A stretch of 36,067 nt of DNA from a virus (Duplodnaviria > Heunggongvirae > Uroviricota > Caudoviricetes), in IMG/VR virus record IMGVR_UViG_2563366915_000004; one strand, given 5' to 3'. This document shows positions 24,265-36,067 of this stretch, one piece after another (within the stretch, counting starts at the first letter, position 1; each line of letters begins with the position of its first letter). Made by a program: the position numbers and the translations under genes. Below the pieces are notes generated by a model. It worked only from the letters and a program-made list of their open reading frames with translations. It searched no databases and had not been told where the DNA came from.

Positions 24265-26052
24265 ATGGACGATATTAATATCAGCCTCGACGAACTTAAC
24301 ACTATTGATTTATCCCCCTTAATCCAGAGTAAGCTGCCAGTTACCTGCTTTGATATCACAAAGTATCTTTCTAGCCTAGGTGATGGAAGAGCGGAGATAA
24401 GACTGCTAACCCATATTTGCGGTTTTCACTTTCGTCCCGAAAATCCACAGGTACCATTTGGTCCGTGCTTTCAAAGCAGCCAAGGTAGATCTGCAATTCC
24501 GGATGACATTAACGGGTTGTCGCTGGAGGTACTTTCTCAATTTTGCCCGACGATAGAGCTACCCGAACTTCAAGCTCGTATTGCTGATACACTTTGGGTT
24601 CGTAAAATTGGTGGAATCCGTTTTCCTTTGCTGGCAGTCCGTGCTTATTATGCGTCCAGTATAGCTATTATGACATCGCAAGGGACGTGGGTTAGTGCTT
24701 TAGAACGCCTAGAGCGTGCGCTTAGGCTGTGTTGTTTTTTTCGAAAGAATACTGATTTCAGGGATGAATTTGATCAGCTTTCGGCACATCTACTAGCAGA
24801 GTATGAACGTACCAGAGAACAAGGCGATTCACCTTATCCGCTGCGACTCCTGCAACTCGATATCGACTGTAAAGTGAGTGAGCCATCTTTTATTGCCCAG
24901 GAACTCCTGTTTCTGACAAAAAACTATCTGGCTCAAAAATTATTTTCATTTGCCGTCGATGCCTGTAAAACCGCAATCACGATTGCGAATAGGTGCTGTG
25001 ACAGAGATACACAGTTTGAATTCTGGCGGCTTCTTGCCGATACACATCTGGAAGAGTCAAAATTCCAAGATGGCGGTATGATTTCGGCAGCCTGCATGCA
25101 GAATGCTATTGAAGCACTGGCTAATATTCCAGGAACCCGAATAGAACGTCTTGCGCTGTATGAAGAAATGCGTGATTACCAAATCGAATCCCGTCACCAG
25201 ATGTCTATCCTTCAGTCTCCCCCTCAAGATATTAGTGAGATTGTCCATCAAGCCAAGAGTCGGGTAGTCGGAAGAGATATGTTTGATATGGTTTTCAGAC
25301 TTGCGATGCTGGTCTGTCGGCCAACCAGCATTGAGAGACTTAAGGCTCAAGCAATAGAACAAAAGGCCAACAGCATAGCTTGGATGTTTGGATCAACACA
25401 TATTGATCATGAGGGAATGACACTTGCTCGCATACCCGCAGGATTGGGGATTGATGATGCAAATGGGGCAGTTATTTGGCCCATAATGATGACGAGAATG
25501 CGTATCGACCATGAGTTGGCAGTAGCTGGGCAAATTATTCCTGCTACAGATGAGATCACAATGAAATATCCAATCTCGGAGGCGTTTTTTCGCGATATGT
25601 TCATCAATCATCCCTTCATCCCGTTTGGGCATGAAGAGTTTTTCATCAAGGGTATGGTTTGCGGTTTCAATGGAGATTTTATGACGGCATGCCACGTGTT
25701 GATTCCCCAGATCGAAAATAGTCTGAGATATGTGGCTAAAATTAAAGGTGAGGAACCATCGCAGCTTCACGGGGACGGTTCGCAAGAGCGAAATGGACTC
25801 AAGGGATTACTAGATAATCCACTGATTATTGAAGCTTTCGGCGTAGACATAATTGGCAATCTTCAGGCCTTACTGGTAGATAAAATCTATGGTGATTTAC
25901 GAAATCAACTAGCTCACGGATATGTGCCTGCCGGTTACTACAATCAACCTCCCTGCATTTTTGCATGGTGGCTTGTATTGCACATTCTAATGAACCCTAC
26001 GGCGAGATACTGGCAAGCCACTTATGGCCAAGAGAGTGAGGCTCAGACTTAA
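24265..26052 (+). CDS. 595-aa protein with C-terminal HEPN-type Rx4HxY motif (candidate RNase-type defence/abortive-infection effector); N-terminal roughly 500 aa of unknown family
   Basis: Long ORF with AAGGTGA RBS 5 nt upstream of the ATG; opposite orientation to all flanking prophage genes; motif GDLRNQLAHGY (R546-x4-H551-x-Y553, nt about 25891-25923) about 45 aa from the C-terminus. Confidence 0.75.
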   Translation: MDDINISLDELNTIDLSPLIQSKLPVTCFDITKYLSSLGDGRAEIRLLTHICGFHFRPENPQVPFGPCFQSSQGRSAIPDDINGLSLEVLSQFCPTIELPELQARIADTLWVRKIGGIRFPLLAVRAYYASSIAIMTSQGTWVSALERLERALRLCCFFRKNTDFRDEFDQLSAHLLAEYERTREQGDSPYPLRLLQLDIDCKVSEPSFIAQELLFLTKNYLAQKLFSFAVDACKTAITIANRCCDRDTQFEFWRLLADTHLEESKFQDGGMISAACMQNAIEALANIPGTRIERLALYEEMRDYQIESRHQMSILQSPPQDISEIVHQAKSRVVGRDMFDMVFRLAMLVCRPTSIERLKAQAIEQKANSIAWMFGSTHIDHEGMTLARIPAGLGIDDANGAVIWPIMMTRMRIDHELAVAGQIIPATDEITMKYPISEAFFRDMFINHPFIPFGHEEFFIKGMVCGFNGDFMTACHVLIPQIENSLRYVAKIKGEEPSQLHGDGSQERNGLKGLLDNPLIIEAFGVDIIGNLQALLVDKIYGDLRNQLAHGYVPAGYYNQPPCIFAWWLVLHILMNPTARYWQATYGQESEAQT

Positions 26053-26270: not shown

Positions 26271-26672
26271 TTATCCCTGATAAAATGCCAGTATGCGCTG
26301 CATAACTTCACTCATCCGGCACTCGCGACAGATTATGTTTAGGCGACTGTCGTAGCGACGTATTTCTCCATCAGGTAACGACCAGATAAGGTCCGGATCA
26401 ACCACAGCTGTTTTCTTCACCTTTGCCCTCGAGAGTTTTTTGCGGGCGTTTTGCCAGTCCTTACGCGCCTGTTCAGACGGGAATAACCCGTAGCCGGAGT
26501 TGTATACATCGCCACTGGCTACCAGCTCTCTGGCAAGAACGCTCATCAGATATCTAGTCGCACCTGTTTTAGCTTCCAGTTGCCGTAACGTCTCACGACC
26601 GCTCTGGCGCACGAGTTCCACCACCTGCCCTTTAATTTTTTCCCGCTCTTCTTGTGTAAAAACTTTTGCCAC
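26271..26672 (-). CDS. hypothetical protein (133 aa) downstream of the replication initiator
   Basis: ORF with GTG start preceded by AAGGGGG; possible winged-helix-like N-terminus and CxxC near the C-terminus; family not recognised. Confidence 0.5.
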   Translation of the reverse strand: MAKVFTQEEREKIKGQVVELVRQSGRETLRQLEAKTGATRYLMSVLARELVASGDVYNSGYGLFPSEQARKDWQNARKKLSRAKVKKTAVVDPDLIWSLPDGEIRRYDSRLNIICRECRMSEVMQRILAFYQG

Positions 26673-26712: not shown

Positions 26713-27678
26713 TTATCCTCTGAAACCAGGCGGAATTTCTGTATCCGGTTCAGAAATATGATTAACACAACGCTGTACAGGTGAACGCCCCAGGCGGATG
26801 ACCAGTTCGTCCCATTTTTCGCGGAGCTTTGACGGGCTCATGATGTTTTTTACCCAGAATGGATCCCGCTGTACCCGACCAAACATTTCACAAATTTGTC
26901 TGTGGCTTCTGCCATCCAGCATCCGCATTGTGCGCACATCATTGGCCCAGACAGTCCAGTTAGGCTCTTTTGGTCGCATGATCTCGCCATCATCACTGGC
27001 GGCCTGTTCGTAGAGACCCACGATCCGCCCCCATATCCACTGCGCACACGCCAGATCCTCCTGGCTACCCCACTGGCGTTTTTTCGCACTAAACACAACT
27101 GCGCCAGGGTGCCGGATTAAAAAATCCTGTTCAGCCGTCTGCGGGTCCGGTTGCGAAGCTTCCGGACGAAAAGTGTTTTTATTCTCTGTAGTAATCTCTG
27201 TTGTATTCTCTGTAGGATCATCGGGCCATTTTGACCCGATGACATTGGGTCGTTTTGAACCAATGGAGCGTTTCATTTTGACCTCTTCCATCGTGTCATT
27301 TTGACCTGATGGAGCGGCGCATTTTGAACCGATGGATTCGCTCAATTTGCCATCATCTAAAAGCTCGCTTCCATAGTTAATCGTGTAGAAATTGGTCATA
27401 TCGCGCTTTGATTTATTGAGCTTTTCACAACGCAAAAGCCCCAGCGTTTTCAGACTTGCAAACGCGCGCTTTAACGTTGACTCTGACCAGAATGGGAACT
27501 GTTCCAGCCATTGTTCCGTTGTGTTGTAAATCCAGCGAACACCATCACATTCCATGCCGGAATTGGTATCTCTCAACCAGTAATGCAACTGCTGCAACAC
27601 AATGGCTTCATTTAAGCCAATCTTCATCGCAAGCTGTGTGTTTATAACCAGTGGGCGTTCAGCAAAAAGAAGGCTCAT
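26713..27678 (-). CDS. replication initiator (lambda O-like / replisome organiser) containing the origin iterons
   Basis: Track ORF 26713..27732; start moved to internal Met MSLLFAERPLVINTQLAMKIGLNEAIVLQQLHYWL...; the central region encodes a repeated IGSK motif coinciding with DNA iterons; position downstream of the cro-like and cII-position genes. Confidence 0.75.
   Translation of the reverse strand: MSLLFAERPLVINTQLAMKIGLNEAIVLQQLHYWLRDTNSGMECDGVRWIYNTTEQWLEQFPFWSESTLKRAFASLKTLGLLRCEKLNKSKRDMTNFYTINYGSELLDDGKLSESIGSKCAAPSGQNDTMEEVKMKRSIGSKRPNVIGSKWPDDPTENTTEITTENKNTFRPEASQPDPQTAEQDFLIRHPGAVVFSAKKRQWGSQEDLACAQWIWGRIVGLYEQAASDDGEIMRPKEPNWTVWANDVRTMRMLDGRSHRQICEMFGRVQRDPFWVKNIMSPSKLREKWDELVIRLGRSPVQRCVNHISEPDTEIPPGFRG
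27226..27351. repeat. origin-like iterons: 5-6 direct repeats with about 23-bp periodicity (consensus cATTTTGAcC...GATGG) inside the initiator gene
   Basis: Repeats near 27228, 27252, 27275, 27298, 27321 and a degenerate copy near 27344, followed by an AT-richer stretch; analogous to lambda ori within O. Confidence 0.65.
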
Positions 27679-28180
27679 AATTCCATCCAGCTTTTTGTTG
27701 GTATTGCTGTCGATACGCAAGTTTGAAAGCAATTGCTTTTTCTATAAGTTCGTCAGTTTCACGATCCACTACGGCAGGATCAGCAAAAAGCAGTCCGGAC
27801 TCCACCACATCGCCATATTCTTTGTTTAACCCGGCGATCATGTACGTGATGCTTTTTCCGTCACTAATTTCACGATACAACCTGAAATCATTAATCCGGA
27901 TAGCCTCCATAATTGCAGGCACTAGCGCCGTGAACTTTTCACGCTTATCCCTGGTGTCGATAGCCTTCCAGCGTTCGAATATCTTCACTCGATTAACGCC
28001 AAGCGCTCGCTGATCAACCGCGCCACCTTCATCTGTGACACGCTGAACATCGATGTTCGGGCGCTCTTTCAAAGCCCAGAATGCTTCAGTGATTAATATC
28101 GTCGCCTGCTCCTGTGTCATTCCTGGTCGACATATCCAGGCATCCAGAGCCTCACGAGCCTGTTCAGGAGTGATTTTCAT
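27659..28180 (-). CDS. YdaT-like protein (cII-position regulatory protein)
   Basis: 173-aa ORF between the cro-like gene and the initiator; segment KREKFTALVPAIMEAI resembles the YdaT family as recalled; overlaps neighbours by a few codons. Confidence 0.5.
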   Translation of the reverse strand: MKITPEQAREALDAWICRPGMTQEQATILITEAFWALKERPNIDVQRVTDEGGAVDQRALGVNRVKIFERWKAIDTRDKREKFTALVPAIMEAIRINDFRLYREISDGKSITYMIAGLNKEYGDVVESGLLFADPAVVDRETDELIEKAIAFKLAYRQQYQQKAGWNYEPSFC

Positions 28181-28391
28181 TGTTCAACCGCCCCGCCCGC
28201 TTCGTCTTACGATATTCGTCATAAACCTTGGGATCATACAGAAGCTCGCCGCCAGATGCCTCCTGTAGACGCATCGCGCGACCTTCAGGAACCAGCTCTT
28301 GCCATTGAGAAACAGCAGATGGGTCAACGCCAGCAGCTTTCGCTACTTTGGCTTTCGTACCGTAAAAATTAATTACGTCTGATTTAAACAT
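28164..28391 (-). CDS. dicC: Cro-like repressor DicC homolog
   Basis: Track ORF 28164..28418; start at internal Met MFKSDVINFYGTKAKVAKAAGVDPSAVSQWQ...PEGRAMRLQEASGGELLYDPKVYDEYRKTKRAGRLNNENHS (HTH); GGAGGTG RBS; divergent from dicA. Confidence 0.8.
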   Translation of the reverse strand: MFKSDVINFYGTKAKVAKAAGVDPSAVSQWQELVPEGRAMRLQEASGGELLYDPKVYDEYRKTKRAGRLNNENHS

Positions 28392-28404: not shown

Positions 28405-28418
28405 TTGAGTTTTCTCAA
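28405..28418. promoter_or_regulatory. palindromic operator TTGAGTTTTCTCAA in the dicA/dicC divergent promoter region
   Basis: Perfect 14-bp palindrome between the divergent repressor genes; a near-identical copy lies upstream of ydfA. Confidence 0.5.
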
Positions 28419-28468
28419 TGCTAATCACTCAAGGAATCTCAAGTCAAGGGTTATTAAGATATCTAAAT

Positions 28469-28876
28469 ATGAACGAGAAAACTTTAGGTCAACGCATTAG
28501 AGAAAGACGTAAGCAGGTAGGTTTAAGTCAAAACGGTTTAAGCAAAGCTGCTGGCGTATCTGGCTCATCAATTTCATTATGGGAAAGTGACCATACAGCC
28601 CCGCGCGGGCAAAATTTGCATCGCCTCGCCGAGGTATTGCAATGTTCACCAACCTGGATACTGTTTGGCGACGAGGACAAAACACCAGCTCCCCCTGTTT
28701 CACTCGATAGTGCCTTAGACTTATCGGAAGATGAGTTAGAGATGCTGCGTTTGTATCGCGCACTTCCTAAATCAGAGCAACAAGCACAACTCAGCGAACT
28801 CCGCGCCCGCGTTGAGAATTTTAATCGCCTGTTCACCGAGCTATTAGAGGCTCGCAAACGCAACAAGCATCAATAA
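28469..28876 (+). CDS. dicA: cI-like repressor DicA homolog (XRE-family HTH)
   Basis: Track ORF 28418..28876; start at internal Met MNEKTLGQRIRERRKQVGLSQNGLSKAAGVSGSSISLWESDHTAPRGQNLHRLAEVLQCSPTWILFGDED...; no obvious SD, possibly a short-leader transcript. Confidence 0.85.
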   Translation: MNEKTLGQRIRERRKQVGLSQNGLSKAAGVSGSSISLWESDHTAPRGQNLHRLAEVLQCSPTWILFGDEDKTPAPPVSLDSALDLSEDELEMLRLYRALPKSEQQAQLSELRARVENFNRLFTELLEARKRNKHQ

Positions 28877-30757: not shown

Positions 30758-33229
30758 ATGAGTAAAGTCTTTATTTGCGCCGCTATTCCTGACGAACTGG
30801 CAACAAGGGAAGAAGGCGCTGTGGCTGTAGCCACAGCCATTGAAGCTGGCGACGAACGCCGTGCTCGAGCAAAATTTCACTGGCAATTCCTGGAACATTA
30901 TCCGGCTGCTCAGGACTGCGCTTATAAATTTATTGTCTGCGAGGATAAACCTGGCATACCCCGCCCTGCCCTCGATTCATGGGATGCTGAATATATGCAG
31001 GAAAACCGCTGGGATGAGGAGTCTGCTTCTTTTGTCCCGGTTGAGACTGAATCCGATCCGATGAACGTCACTTTTGACAAGCTGGCCCCTGAAGTACAGA
31101 ACGCTGTCATGGTTAAGTTCGACACATGTGAAAACATCACCGTTGATATGGTTATTAGCGCACAGGAATTGTTGCAGGAAGACATGGCAACATTCGACGG
31201 ACATATCGTTGAAGCGTTGATGAAAATGCCAGAAGTTAACGCCATGTATCCGGAGCTTAAGTTGCACGCCATTGGGTGGGTTAAGCATAAATGTATTCCT
31301 GGTGCTAAATGGCCCGAAATTCAGGCAGAGATGCGCATCTGGAAAAAACGTCGCGAAGGTGAACGCAAGGAAACCGGAAAATACACGTCTGTTGTTGATC
31401 TCGCCCGCGCCAGAGCCAATCAACAGTACACTGAAAATTCAACAGGAAAAATCAGCCCGGTCATTGCTGCCATTCATCGCGAATACAAGCAGACATGGAA
31501 AACACTGGATGACGAACTGGCCTACGCTCTCTGGCCTGGTGATGTGGATGCCGGAAACATTGACGGCAGCATCCATCGCTGGGCAAAAAATGAAGTTATC
31601 GATAACGACCGCGAAGACTGGAAGCGTATCTCGGCATCAATGCGCAAACAGCCTGATGCCCTTCGCTACGACCGCCAAACTATTTTTGGCCTTGTCCGTG
31701 AACGTCCGATCGACATTCACAAAGATCCCGTAGCACTGAACAAATATATCTGCGAATACCTGACGACAAAGGGCGTGTTTGAGAATGAAGAAACAGACCT
31801 GGGCACTGTTGATGTTCTCCAGTCATCAGAAACACAAACTGATGCAGTGGAAACTGAGGTATCTGATATCCCAAAAAATGAAACCGCGCCGGAAGCTGAA
31901 CCATCTGTAGAGCGTGAGGGGCCGTTCTATTTCCTCTTCGCAGATAAGGACGGAGAAAAATACGGTCGCGCAAACAAACTTTCTGGTCTGGATAAGGCAC
32001 TGGCTGCTGGCGCCACTGAAATCACAAAAGAAGAATATTTTGCCCGAAAAAATGGCACATACACGGGCTTACCGCAAAATGTAGATACCGCTGAAGATTC
32101 AGAACAACCAGAGCCGATAAAAGTTACCGCTGACGAAGTAAACAAAATTATGCAGGCAGCCAATATCATCCAGCCTGACGCCGATAAGTTGCTTGCTGCA
32201 TCACGTGGTGAATTTGTTGAAGGGATTAGTGACCCGAATGATCCGAAATGGGTTAAGGGGATCCAGACCCGCGATTCTGTGAACCAGAACCAGCATGAAT
32301 CGGAACGGAACTACCAAAAAGCGGAACAAAACAGCCCAAATGCGTTACAAAACGAGCCAGAAACGAAACAGCCTGAATCAGTGGCGCAACAGGAAGTGGA
32401 AAAAGTCTGCACCGCCTGCGGTCAGACCGGCGGCGGCAACTGCCCTGATTGTGGCGCGGTAATGGGCGACGCAACATACCAGGAAACATTCGATGAAGAG
32501 TATCAGGTTGAAGTTCAGGAAGATGATCCGGAGAAAATGGAAGGCGCTGAACATCCACACAAGGAGAACACTGGCGGCAATCAGCATCACGATAGCGATA
32601 ATGAAACTGGCGAGACGGCAGATCACTCAATTAAGGTGAACGGTCATCACGAAATCACATCCACCAGCAGGACGTGTGACCATCTAATGATCGACCTTGA
32701 AACCATGGGAAAAAATCCTGATGCCCCGATCATCTCAATAGGTGCAATATTTTTCGATCCGCAAACCGGAGATATGGGACCGGAATTTATTAAGACTATC
32801 GATCTGGAAACTGCTGGCGGAGTCATTGATCGGGACACCATTAAATGGTGGTTTAAGCAATCACGCGAAGCGCAATCTGCCATTATGACCGATGAAATCC
32901 CGTTAGATGATGCACTGTTACAATTGCGGGAATTTATCGACGAAAACTCCGGTGAATTTTTTGTTCAGGTCTGGGGAAATGGAGCCAACTTCGACAACAC
33001 GATTTTGCGCCGTTCATACGAACGGCAGGGGATCCCCTGCCCGTGGCGTTACTACAACGATCGCGATGTACGCACAATCGTTGAGCTGGGGAAAGCCATA
33101 GACTTCGATGCCAGAACGGCTATTCAATTCGAAGGTGAGCGCCATAATGCACTTGATGACGCCCGTTACCAGGCAAAATACGTTTCAGTTATCTGGCAAA
33201 AACTGATCCCGAGTCAGGCTGATTCTTAA
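30758..33229 (+). CDS. ydfE: full-length YdfE-like protein (823 aa) with zinc-ribbon and C-terminal DEDDh 3'-5' exonuclease domain
   Basis: N-terminus MSKVFICAAIPDELATREEGAVAVATAIEAGDERRARAKFHWQFLEHYP as in YdfE; acidic middle region; CTACGQTGGGNCPDCG zinc ribbon; C-terminal Exo motifs LMIDLETMG, WGNGANFDN, HNALDDARY. Confidence 0.8.
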   Translation: MSKVFICAAIPDELATREEGAVAVATAIEAGDERRARAKFHWQFLEHYPAAQDCAYKFIVCEDKPGIPRPALDSWDAEYMQENRWDEESASFVPVETESDPMNVTFDKLAPEVQNAVMVKFDTCENITVDMVISAQELLQEDMATFDGHIVEALMKMPEVNAMYPELKLHAIGWVKHKCIPGAKWPEIQAEMRIWKKRREGERKETGKYTSVVDLARARANQQYTENSTGKISPVIAAIHREYKQTWKTLDDELAYALWPGDVDAGNIDGSIHRWAKNEVIDNDREDWKRISASMRKQPDALRYDRQTIFGLVRERPIDIHKDPVALNKYICEYLTTKGVFENEETDLGTVDVLQSSETQTDAVETEVSDIPKNETAPEAEPSVEREGPFYFLFADKDGEKYGRANKLSGLDKALAAGATEITKEEYFARKNGTYTGLPQNVDTAEDSEQPEPIKVTADEVNKIMQAANIIQPDADKLLAASRGEFVEGISDPNDPKWVKGIQTRDSVNQNQHESERNYQKAEQNSPNALQNEPETKQPESVAQQEVEKVCTACGQTGGGNCPDCGAVMGDATYQETFDEEYQVEVQEDDPEKMEGAEHPHKENTGGNQHHDSDNETGETADHSIKVNGHHEITSTSRTCDHLMIDLETMGKNPDAPIISIGAIFFDPQTGDMGPEFIKTIDLETAGGVIDRDTIKWWFKQSREAQSAIMTDEIPLDDALLQLREFIDENSGEFFVQVWGNGANFDNTILRRSYERQGIPCPWRYYNDRDVRTIVELGKAIDFDARTAIQFEGERHNALDDARYQAKYVSVIWQKLIPSQADS

Positions 33230-33281: not shown

Positions 33282-34476
<1,195 letters not shown>

Positions 34477-34771: not shown

Positions 34772-36067
34772 ATGAGAGAAGTTGAAATGAAATATCCGAC
34801 AGGCGTGGAAAACCATGGAGGGAAATTACGTATCTGGTTTGTTTATAAAGGCGTAAGAGTCAGGGAAAACCTGGGGGTTCCTGACACAGCAAAAAACAGG
34901 CGCGTTGCAGGTGAGCTACGCGCCTCTGTTTGTTACGCAATAAAAACTGGTGTTTTCGACTATGCAAAACAGTTTCCCTCCTCACGCAATCTGGAAAAAT
35001 TTGGTGAGGCCCGACAAGATTTAACCATAAAAGAACTGGCTGAAAAATTTCTGGCACTGAAAGAAACTGAAGTCGCAAAAACATCACTCAACACATACCG
35101 TGCCGTCATCAAAAATATCCTGAGCATAATCGGTGAAAAAAATCTTGCCTCATCGATTAATAAAGAAAAATTACTGGAGGTTCGTAAAGAGCTACTGACT
35201 GGATACCAGATCCCCAAAAGTAACTATATTGTTACACAACCAGGGAGATCGGCTGTAACTGTAAATAATTACATGACAAATCTTAACGCCGTGTTCCAGT
35301 TTGGTGTTGATAACGGTTACCTGGTAGATAACCCGTTTAAGGGGATCTCGCCATTAAAGGAATCAAGAACCATTCCGGATCCTCTTTCGCGGGAGGAATT
35401 CATCCGTCTTATCGATGCGTGCAGAAATCAGCAAGCCAAAAATTTATGGTGTGTTTCTGTTTATACTGGCGTTCGCCCTGGTGAGCTGTGTGCACTTGGA
35501 TGGGAGGACATAGATCTGAAAAATGGAACAATGATGATCAGGAGAAATTTAGCAAAAGACCGTTTCACGGTACCAAAAACACAGGCGGGAACCAATCGGG
35601 TCATTCATCTTATTAAGCCAGCAATCGACGCTCTCCGGAGTCAGATGACATTAACGAGACTGAGCAAAGAGCATATCATTGATGTTCACCTCAGAGAGTA
35701 TGGCAGAACAGAAAAACAAAAATGCACCTTTGTTTTTCAACCTGAAGTGTCAGCGAGAGTAAAAAATTATGGTGACCATTTTACCGTTGACTCAATAAGG
35801 CAGATGTGGGACGCAGCGATAAAACGTGCCGGACTCCGCCATCGAAAATCATATCAGTCGAGACATACTTATGCCTGCTGGTCGCTGACAGCTGGTGCTA
35901 ACCCGGCATTTATAGCAAACCAGATGGGCCATGCAGATGCGCAAATGGTATTTCAGGTATACGGAAAATGGATGTCTGAAAACAATAATGCACAGGTAGC
36001 TTTGTTAAATACACAGTTAAGCGAGTTTGCCCCAACCATGCCCCATAACGAAGCAATGAAAAATTAA
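34772..36067 (+). CDS. tyrosine-type phage integrase
   Basis: 431-aa ORF ending at the window edge; C-terminal catalytic region with R...HxxR...Y pattern (RHTYACWSLTAGANPAFIANQMGHADAQMVFQVYGKW); start may be the internal ATG at 34787 (MKYPTGVEN...). Confidence 0.85.
   Translation: MREVEMKYPTGVENHGGKLRIWFVYKGVRVRENLGVPDTAKNRRVAGELRASVCYAIKTGVFDYAKQFPSSRNLEKFGEARQDLTIKELAEKFLALKETEVAKTSLNTYRAVIKNILSIIGEKNLASSINKEKLLEVRKELLTGYQIPKSNYIVTQPGRSAVTVNNYMTNLNAVFQFGVDNGYLVDNPFKGISPLKESRTIPDPLSREEFIRLIDACRNQQAKNLWCVSVYTGVRPGELCALGWEDIDLKNGTMMIRRNLAKDRFTVPKTQAGTNRVIHLIKPAIDALRSQMTLTRLSKEHIIDVHLREYGRTEKQKCTFVFQPEVSARVKNYGDHFTVDSIRQMWDAAIKRAGLRHRKSYQSRHTYACWSLTAGANPAFIANQMGHADAQMVFQVYGKWMSENNNAQVALLNTQLSEFAPTMPHNEAMKN

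Follow-up and report, generated by a model that had tools for sequence, protein, structure and literature searches.

A probable lambda-type replication origin inside the O-like initiator gene of a lambdoid Escherichia coli prophage, and a DnaT-like tail on its initiator

The DNA analyzed here is a 36,067-nucleotide stretch (the window) from the virus record IMGVR_UViG_2563366915_000004, a lambdoid E. coli prophage, and its subject is the O-like replication initiator gene with the repeat array that lies within it. The gene occupies 26713-27678 on the minus strand and encodes 321 amino acids (aa) from the ATG at 27678. The mechanically called open reading frame (ORF) reaches a TTG at 27732; phages that are 98% identical are annotated from the ATG. 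Along the gene lie a predicted N-terminal domain (about aa 1-105; 27364-27678, minus strand), an iteron array (27219-27357, gene nucleotides (nt) 322-460 of 966), an AT-rich segment (27177-27215), a C-terminal domain (aa 181-297; 26788-27138, minus strand), and a C-terminal tail (aa 301-321; 26716-26778, minus strand). The protein matched phrog_391, 'replication initiation O-like', with an E-value of 3.5e-92. No Pfam or NCBIfam family scored above threshold, and public sources list it as 'hypothetical protein'. Segment 26200-28450, which includes the gene, matched phage mEp460_ev081 at 98.3% and phage HannyBb at 98.0%.

A first-pass annotation of this DNA, made from the letters alone, had proposed five to six direct repeats with a period of about 23 bp inside the O-like gene and a candidate prophage origin there. 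The repeat search over this region, which had been suggested as a check, found the repeats to be real: the 23-nt families had start-to-start spacings of 24, 23, 23, 23, and 23, and Tandem Repeats Finder (TRF) reported a period of 23 with 3.7 copies (score 70) at 27253-27336. With the alignment, six 23-bp units at a spacing of 23-24 bp could be placed, at 27335-27357, 27312-27334, 27289-27311, 27266-27288, 27243-27265, and 27219-27241 (units 1 to 6). The array is indeed inside the initiator gene, in the part coding for the linker, and the location first given for it (27226-27351) was right, although the true span of 27219-27357 is slightly wider. The gene-sense consensus of the iteron is CATCrGGTCAAAATGACCCGATG. 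Units 3, 5, and 6 are near-perfect palindromes, agreeing with the palindrome CATCGGGTCAAAATGACCCGATG at 21, 19, and 22 of 23 positions, respectively, and pairing 8-9 of the 10 arm positions. Units 2 and 4 retain just the GGTCAAAATG core (18/23 and 15/23 against CATCGGGTCAAAATGACCCGATG), and unit 1 is degenerate (13/23).

The array stands alone in the window. In the 36 kb, exact copies of the core CATTTTGAMC number four; all lie within the array, on the same strand and in phase with the 23-bp period, and the 23-mer with up to three mismatches gave 2 matches versus 0.00 expected. Self-identity at lag 23 was 0.552, a value that only 5 of 347,263 window-by-lag tests reached elsewhere in the window. 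Neither the core scan nor the lag self-identity revealed a second comparable repeat cluster. All 5 of those tests fell at one spot, at about 31745-31900 inside the gene of an 823-aa exonuclease, where TRF (at about 31750) found no tandem repeat; this spot probably reflects the biased composition of the acidic central part of the exonuclease. Six related proteins of 290 aa in several E. coli records (P0018-P0023) carry a 31-residue deletion of exactly the block between the first and last IGSK, corresponding to 27242-27334 of the window, with most iterons lost. The deletion probably arose by recombination between direct repeats, and these initiator copies may be origin-defective.

Whether the repeat is kept as DNA or as peptide could be judged from its reading frames and its conservation. 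Units 1 to 6 fall in reading frames 0, 2, 1, 0, 2, and 2, respectively. The repeats had been said to encode a repeated IGSK motif, which is true of three units, whereas other units read SGQN and EVKM, because a 23-bp period is not a multiple of three and shifts the frame. Since units stand in all three frames, the repeat is not kept via its peptide. For the conservation comparison, we used homologues approximately 70% identical (L126, L124, and L122), leaving L122 out of the C-domain figures, as its C-domain is unrelated. For the array plus AT-rich segment, third-codon-position identity was 0.80-0.87 (0.78-0.83 for the array alone) with an amino-acid identity of 0.68-0.73. The corresponding values were 0.48-0.50 and 0.77-0.79 for the N-domain, and 0.37-0.45 and 0.69-0.70 for the C-domain. 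Identical codons were used at 39 of 42 conserved residues in the array and AT-rich segment versus 92 of 165 in the two domains (Fisher p = 2e-6). The encoded residues, aa 101-177, were predicted to be disordered by AlphaFold2 (AF2), so that the constraint on the DNA comes at small cost to the protein. The repeat is an element of the DNA rather than of the peptide.

The segment that follows the array, at 27177-27215, is a candidate DNA-unwinding element consisting of three 12-mers and AAAA (TRF period 12), the 12-mers reading CTACAGAGAATA / CAACAGAGATTA / CTACAGAGAATA on the gene strand at 27180-27215. It is 69% AT, and its sense strand is 69% purine. An AT-richer segment behind the repeats had been expected from the first reading of the sequence, and the AT maximum of the gene does lie directly on the gene-3' side of the array, which is the side of lower window coordinates: the top-AT 40-nt stretch of the whole gene (72.5% versus a mean of 52%) starts at gene nt 470, 10 nt after the last unit ends at nt 460. 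Third-position identity in the segment was 1.00 to the approximately 70%-identical L124 and L126 and 0.85 to L122, and the segment goes with the N-domain and the iterons, not with the C-domain. The copy number of the 12-mer varies (P0100, L318), with one natural form carrying a fourth. Other initiator types also have their AT maximum mostly 0-90 nt 3' of the array.

The two domains that flank the linker have different relationships. The N-domain, a predicted winged helix with a putative origin-binding role, is about 45% identical to initiators of Staphylococcus and Listeria phages over aa 3-139 and was modeled by AF2 as helices and strands with a predicted local distance difference test score (pLDDT) of about 60-73. 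It is not a Phage_rep_O domain, as PF04492 gave no match at E ≤ 0.01; for comparison, lambda O scored 5.7e-36 and L023 7.2e-30. Pfam also found neither a RepA_N (PF06970) nor a DUF1376 N-domain in the initiator. The C-domain is a homologue of the lambda O C-domain, 36% identical to the O proteins of lambda, 933W, 434, and phi80 over aa 170-294 (tblastn), and phmmer of lambda O against relatives of this domain reached E-values down to 7.6e-25. AF2 modeled it as helical with a pLDDT of 62-84. The DnaT DNA-binding three-helix domain (PF17948) had no Pfam match in the initiator, and the idea that the C-domain is a divergent DnaT domain was dropped at an hhalign probability of 0.04. A Foldseek search of the PDB with the AF2 model gave no match at E ≤ 0.001. 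The best nonsignificant matches were winged-helix DNA binders, led by the Rep-DNA complex 5kbj (E 0.088), and such fold matches are suggestive only because the mean pLDDT of the model is 54.8.

Comparison of relatives revealed which part of the protein the iterons accompany. Genes with N-domains at least 75% identical to that of the window carried GGTCAAAATGA units with a period of 23, and these included L122, in which a window-type N-domain is joined to an unrelated C-domain (Phg_2220_C). When the C-domain was 91-95% identical and the N-domain was of the HTH_36/DnaD_N type, the units were instead TGACCCGTCAA, with a period of 15/30 at the same gene position. In detecting arrays among relatives, exact 9-mer counts missed most, and TRF performed better. 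A wider scan, in which each bacterial species was represented by one genome, looked for pairs of cores spaced 23 bp apart; it gave 117 matches, and 21 of these 117 loci encode a homologue of the window N-domain. Twenty of the 21 were examined, and in all 20 the cores were inside the gene, at nt ~330-520, in sense orientation and with 22-24 bp spacing. As the loci were chosen by the pattern, their frequency is not meaningful; the coincidence of pattern, family, position, and orientation is. The hosts included Staphylococcus, Lysinibacillus, Mitsuokella, Chloroflexota, Geobacteraceae, Acinetobacter, Pasteurella, Gilliamella, and several Enterobacterales. Iteron type thus tracks the N-domain rather than the C-domain, even across phyla, and distant homologues share the DNA unit even though their linker peptides differ.

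In lambdoid O proteins, the N-terminal part sets origin specificity. Selection at the DNA level together with co-variation of iteron and N-domain is the signature expected of a cognate initiator/iteron pair, which the window would then contain. One such putative pair spanning Firmicutes, Proteobacteria, and Chloroflexota with varied C-terminal ends makes a clean case of modular origin-cassette exchange. With the array in the linker and the AT peak directly after it, as in lambda O, the lambda-like architecture proposed at first sight was borne out. On these grounds, the array very probably serves as the replication origin of the phage, of the lambda type and with iteron function. In design, the candidate origin is of the ordinary lambda type, and the initiator family in which it occurs is unnamed and very widespread.

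The genes around the initiator were then considered for the delivery of the helicase. The searches detected no P, DnaC, or DnaB homologue encoded in the non-structural region of the window, and no loader or helicase is annotated in the 20-kb mEp460_ev081 region around the module or in HannyBb, whose record is a complete genome, sampled from bird poop, with the same replication module. The first-pass annotation had likewise recognized neither a P-like nor a DnaC-like loader and had set the module apart from that of lambda, and both statements stand, as no P gene adjoins the initiator. Initiator homologues with 69% identity are also loader-less and have different downstream genes. According to the available text of a 2025 survey (PMC12315714), 34 of 314 Enterobacterales lambdoid phages (~11%) are O-only, no O-only phage has been studied, and their replication 'is not yet understood'.

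The 133-aa gene that follows 40 nt past the initiator stop (26271-26672, minus strand) had been described as being of no known family. It does belong to one, namely PF06163 (DUF977; E 6e-27), and the homologue search also placed it in PHROG 142, 'Ren-like' (DUF977/LygF/Ren-like). A DUF977/YdaW-like gene was present at 100 of the 120 loci with a DnaT-like tail among the matches listed (L004-L123) versus 1 of 33 loci with a P-type tail, the two tails being those described below, and the YdaW-like gene of the K-12 Rac prophage is at L130 4253-4813. The tie of this gene to DnaT-tail modules exceeds mere position. The literature search found no function for DUF977.

The last 21 residues of the initiator, VQRCVNHISEPDTEIPPGFRG, copy the C-terminus of DnaT: 15 of 21 are identical to residues 159-179 of E. 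coli DnaT, and both stretches are C-terminal. They contain the conserved peptide …SEPD..IPPGFRG and were predicted by AF2 to be disordered. It is because of this tail alone that RAST labels the initiator 'Primosomal protein I', as the rest of the protein has no resemblance to DnaT by Pfam or hhalign, neither to its DNA-binding nor to its N-terminal domain. A terminal IPxGFRG was found in 10 of 11 aligned family members, and the approximately 20 preceding residues diverge. Compared with L025, the tail is 100% identical as protein and only 12 of its 21 codons are identical, indicating purifying selection on the peptide at the protein level.

A scan of viral contigs for IPPGFRG followed by a stop codon gave at least 120 loci. 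Among the matches listed, the peptide was in frame at the ORF end in 120 of 120, mostly in ORFs of 260-410 aa. The carriers were of at least nine kinds of replication-initiator-type ORF, including DUF1376, DUF1376 with a true DnaT domain, a DnaT domain with another N-terminus, HTH_36/DnaD_N with Phg_2220_C, Phage_rep_O, the window type, and others. In some phage proteins of 270-290 aa, a non-DnaT N-terminus (DUF1376, or no Pfam match) is joined to a genuine PF17948 domain and the tail (L051, L060, L067, L075, L098, L112, L007, and L097); these proteins look like phage-encoded DnaT-like initiators. The six of these loci without a DUF1376 N-terminus lack a nearby DnaC-like gene, as does L097, whereas L007 has one. 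Searches of the accessible literature identified neither a binding partner for DnaT residues 160-179 nor a function for YdaU/DUF1376.

The type of tail and the type of loader proved to be associated. Among the matches listed, the 120 loci with the IPPGFRG tail included 60 with a DnaC-like gene and none with a P-family or DnaB-like gene. In the C-domain class of the window, 21 of 37 loci had a DnaC-like gene 6 nt past the initiator stop, followed by DUF977, and the other 16 had DUF977 directly at +40, as in the window; in another class, 22 of 27 loci were loader-less. The initiator YdaU of the Rac prophage bears the tail with the DnaC paralogue YdaV next to it, mirroring the host dnaT-dnaC arrangement. 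An earlier idea, that the tail replaces the loader, was ruled out by Rac YdaU with YdaV and by the DnaC-like protein encoded at half of the tail-bearing loci. In its place, we infer from the gene contents of these loci that the tail marks a DnaC route.

The only aligned family member without the tail, P0034, ends in …DWNSADGWEDVL and stands in the context Cro, YdaT, initiator, DUF977; its initiator gene is followed by a P-family gene (PF06992). We collected relatives of this P gene, a sample selected by the P gene that comprised 32 viral loci, or 33 with P0034. All 33 of these P-family loci had a second tail and none had IPPGFRG, with one weak, distant DnaC-like match and no DnaB-like gene. 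The second tail, [HD]WN[ST][AP]E[AG]W[EG].[TF]L, occurs on at least two unrelated C-domain types. A search of viral contigs for the exact tail DGWEDVL-stop gave 2 matches, both 16-aa ORFs and probably due to chance. At 80 lambda-O loci, 78 had a P-family gene, none had a DnaC-like or DnaB-like gene, and no ORF ended in the IPPGFRG tail; this control set is nearly clonal (99-100% identical) and therefore weak.

Six distant homologues of the window N-domain with the same iterons (L248, L254, L264, L272, L294, and L361) carry a third tail, …W[RK]A.F[DE]Y…KT[RI]EGAL. The …KTREGAL loci have a gene for a DnaB-like helicase, and this tail and a DnaB-like partner may form a third class. Taking these tails together, we suggest tentatively, with somewhat less than even confidence, that the C-terminal peptide is a portable 'address label' choosing the route of helicase delivery. 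In the same tentative scheme, for which the odds again fall a little below even, …IPPGFRG would stand for the DnaC type (own or host), …HWNSxExWExTL for the P type, and possibly …KTREGAL for a phage DnaB type. As far as the accessible literature shows, the pattern of DnaT-like tails and loaders has not been described.

From these observations, a route of initiation can be proposed. The N-terminal winged-helix domain would bind the 23-bp palindromic iterons, probably as dimers, in the linker DNA of its own gene, and the nucleoprotein complex would destabilize the adjoining AT-rich 12-mer segment. The early-right operon (Cro, cII/YdaT-like, initiator, and DUF977) is on the minus strand, and rightward early transcription would traverse the array and may help the opening. 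As there is no P, DnaC, or DnaB homologue, host DnaB must come via host factors. The tail would recruit the host DnaB-DnaC complex, as DnaT would in the primosome; its partner would be the DnaC paralogue in modules that have one and the host DnaC here, making the present module a Rac-type ydaU-ydaV-ydaW module without a dnaC paralogue of its own. As a whole, a mEp460-type lambdoid origin with a DnaC-route tail is the probable reading of the locus. Its last step, recruitment of host DnaB-DnaC by the tail, we would give an even chance.

Several points weigh against this proposal. Good palindromes are present in three of the six units only, the AT-rich segment is 69% AT versus 80% in lambda, and the AF2 model is of low confidence (mean pLDDT 54.8, as given above). 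The association of tail and loader is strong, but the loci behind it are related and not independent; they were selected through the tail or the loader gene, and the counts are not phylogenetically corrected. Removal of DnaT residues 154-179 modestly weakens, by about half, cooperative binding to single-stranded DNA (PMC4132743). In the available text of a 2026 cryo-electron microscopy study (PMC13377028), the N-domain of DnaT, not its C-terminus, is proposed as the possible recruiter of DnaB/DnaC, and the C-terminal domain of DnaT docks on PriA via a conserved hydrophobic interface, although how DnaB/DnaC is recruited 'remains unknown'.

The last of these findings leads to the best of the alternatives, in which the tail docks the initiator on the host PriA-PriB primosome, for example at the DnaT site on PriA, and loading proceeds via the replication-restart machinery. 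The tail does contain the hydrophobic and invariant IPPGF, and some tail-bearing phage proteins retain a complete PF17948. However, most carriers have the tail without the three-helix domain of DnaT, and the genomic partner, if any, is always a DnaC paralogue directly downstream among the matches listed. Moreover, the initiators appear to have swapped the PriA/PriB-directed input of DnaT for an origin-binding domain of their own, so that a retained contact on the input side would be unexpected. We consider docking on PriA-PriB unlikely, and DnaC-route recruitment remains the preferred account of the tail.

It is a good deal less probable that the initiator binds the array for autoregulation, copy control, or handcuffing and that the true origin lies elsewhere in the phage. 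Plasmid iterons also serve control. In addition, Rac-type YdaU genes showed no comparable in-gene array, yet the Rac origin oriJ is active (PMC3945230). Against a purely regulatory array, the layout resembles ori-lambda point by point, including the purine-skewed AT segment directly 3'; the third positions of this segment are perfectly conserved in two of three diverged homologues and at 0.85 in the third; and the window has no other comparable repeat cluster. We thus keep to the array as the origin.

The loader-less state might also be the remnant of a lost dnaC-like or P gene in a prophage that no longer replicates by itself. Modules of the same type with a DnaC-like gene exist (the 21 of 37 above), an IS5-family transposase gene lies between the exonuclease and integrase genes, and variants lacking 31 linker residues, and with them several iterons, occur in E. 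coli genomes. Yet the identical module is carried by the deposited phages mEp460_ev081 (98.3%) and HannyBb (98.0%), loader-less modules are frequent in viral contigs (the 16 of 37 loci in one class and 22 of 27 in another), the O-only phages in the available text of PMC12315714 amount to 34 of 314, and the tail is under protein-level purifying selection. Decay is therefore very improbable.

Slightly less probable still is the DUF977 protein as the missing loader or adaptor. Its gene is immediately after the initiator, and the family accompanies most tail loci (the 100 of 120 above). But where relatives have a DnaC-like or P gene, the DUF977 gene comes after it, just where lambda has ren; the last 20 aa of the protein share 50% identity with lambda Ren; further loader-less modules in this initiator family have unrelated genes in its place; and no NTPase motif or loader-family match was found in the protein. 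Judged by its Ren-like C-terminus, its position after the loader, and its absence from other loader-less modules, the DUF977 protein is not a loader substitute. Finally, that the repeat is a tandem IGSK peptide in a flexible linker whose DNA has no role is scarcely credible: IGSK does appear three times in the protein and linkers are often of low complexity, but the remaining two frames are used by other core-bearing units, the units are palindromic and better conserved as DNA than as protein, and distant homologues keep the same DNA unit with differing linker peptides.

Besides the initiator and the DUF977 gene, the early-right operon contains the Cro gene (28164-28391, minus strand) and the cII/YdaT-like gene (27659-28180, minus strand), and the repressor gene is divergent (28418-28876, plus strand); all three were assigned from Pfam and PHROG matches and deposited annotations. 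The YdaT-like and initiator genes overlap by 20 nt in the window. Three database proteins of 448 aa (P0002-P0004) join the YdaT-like protein, with its PF06254 match, to the initiator and may be gene-calling artefacts or frameshift fusions. The IS5-family transposase gene (33428-34444, minus strand; 338 aa, DDE_Tnp_1 and DUF772) is flanked by the genes for the exonuclease (30758-33229) and the integrase (34772-36067) and sits where related phages have an excisionase gene, so that excision of the prophage may be impaired. The slot after the DUF977 gene is occupied on the opposite (plus) strand by a gene for a 595-aa DUF7380 + DUF4209 protein (24265-26052). In mEp460_ev081, this slot has another gene, for a hypothetical protein of 449 aa, and in HannyBb, a methyltransferase gene and small ORFs; it looks like a position for variable cargo or morons.

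As a probable origin of textbook design in an initiator family that databases leave unnamed, the array is mainly a gain in annotation. The loader-less context carries more weight, as this type of module is found in about 11% of the lambdoid phages surveyed (34 of 314), whose replication the available text of that survey calls not understood. A tail paired with DnaC-type or absent loaders, never with P-type ones, gives a testable hypothesis for the O-only gap and bears on the open question of DnaB/DnaC recruitment in E. coli replication restart. If the proposal is true, the C-terminal tail of DnaT would be the long-sought element that recruits DnaB-DnaC to the E. coli primosome, and its imitation would be how O-only lambdoid phages replicate.

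Among known systems, the module is most readily compared with ori-lambda. Both have dyad iterons with a spacing of ~20-24 bp between the N- and C-domains of the initiator gene, at gene nt 349-433 in lambda and 322-460 in the window. The AT maximum starts at nt 436 in lambda, where it reaches 80%, and at nt 470 in the window, with a purine-rich sense strand in both. The C-domains are homologous (36%), and the gene is in the early-right operon after cro and cII. Unlike lambda, the window has an N-domain that is not Phage_rep_O (PF04492), a different iteron sequence, six units rather than four, and no P gene, whereas lambda O has no DnaT-like tail. With the O-only modules of PMC12315714, exemplified by phage LLS, it shares a single O homologue without helicase or loader, and mEp460-type phages are named there as the closest relatives of the LLS immunity genes; neither the iterons nor the DnaT-like tail is described in the available text of that paper. 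The loader-less module is thus a recognized but unexplained variant.

The ydaU-ydaV-ydaW module of Rac (oriJ), whose genes are without a determined function (PMC11014345), likewise has the IPPGFRG tail on its initiator and is closed by the DUF977-like YdaW, and loci with the C-domain type of the window often carry a YdaV-like gene in the same position. It differs in that YdaU has a DUF1376 N-domain and no TRF-detectable in-gene array, and that Rac retains the DnaC paralogue YdaV, which the window is without. A further parallel is offered by RepA_N plasmids. In pSK41 Rep, a winged-helix N-domain binds Rep boxes central in the rep gene, a dispensable linker encoding the origin separates this domain from a host-contacting C-domain, and natural chimeras exchange the N-domain together with the origin (PMC5703833); the top weak fold match of the window's model is also a Rep-DNA complex. 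However, the C-domain of pSK41 Rep is DnaD-like and contacts the DnaG primase, whereas that of the window is lambda-O-like and followed by a DnaT-like tail, and the window initiator has no PF06970 match. DnaT itself differs from the initiator in having PF17948 and the DnaT N-terminal domain, but the two agree in their last 21 residues (15/21), and the DnaT gene is directly upstream of dnaC, just as tail-bearing initiators often precede a dnaC paralogue.

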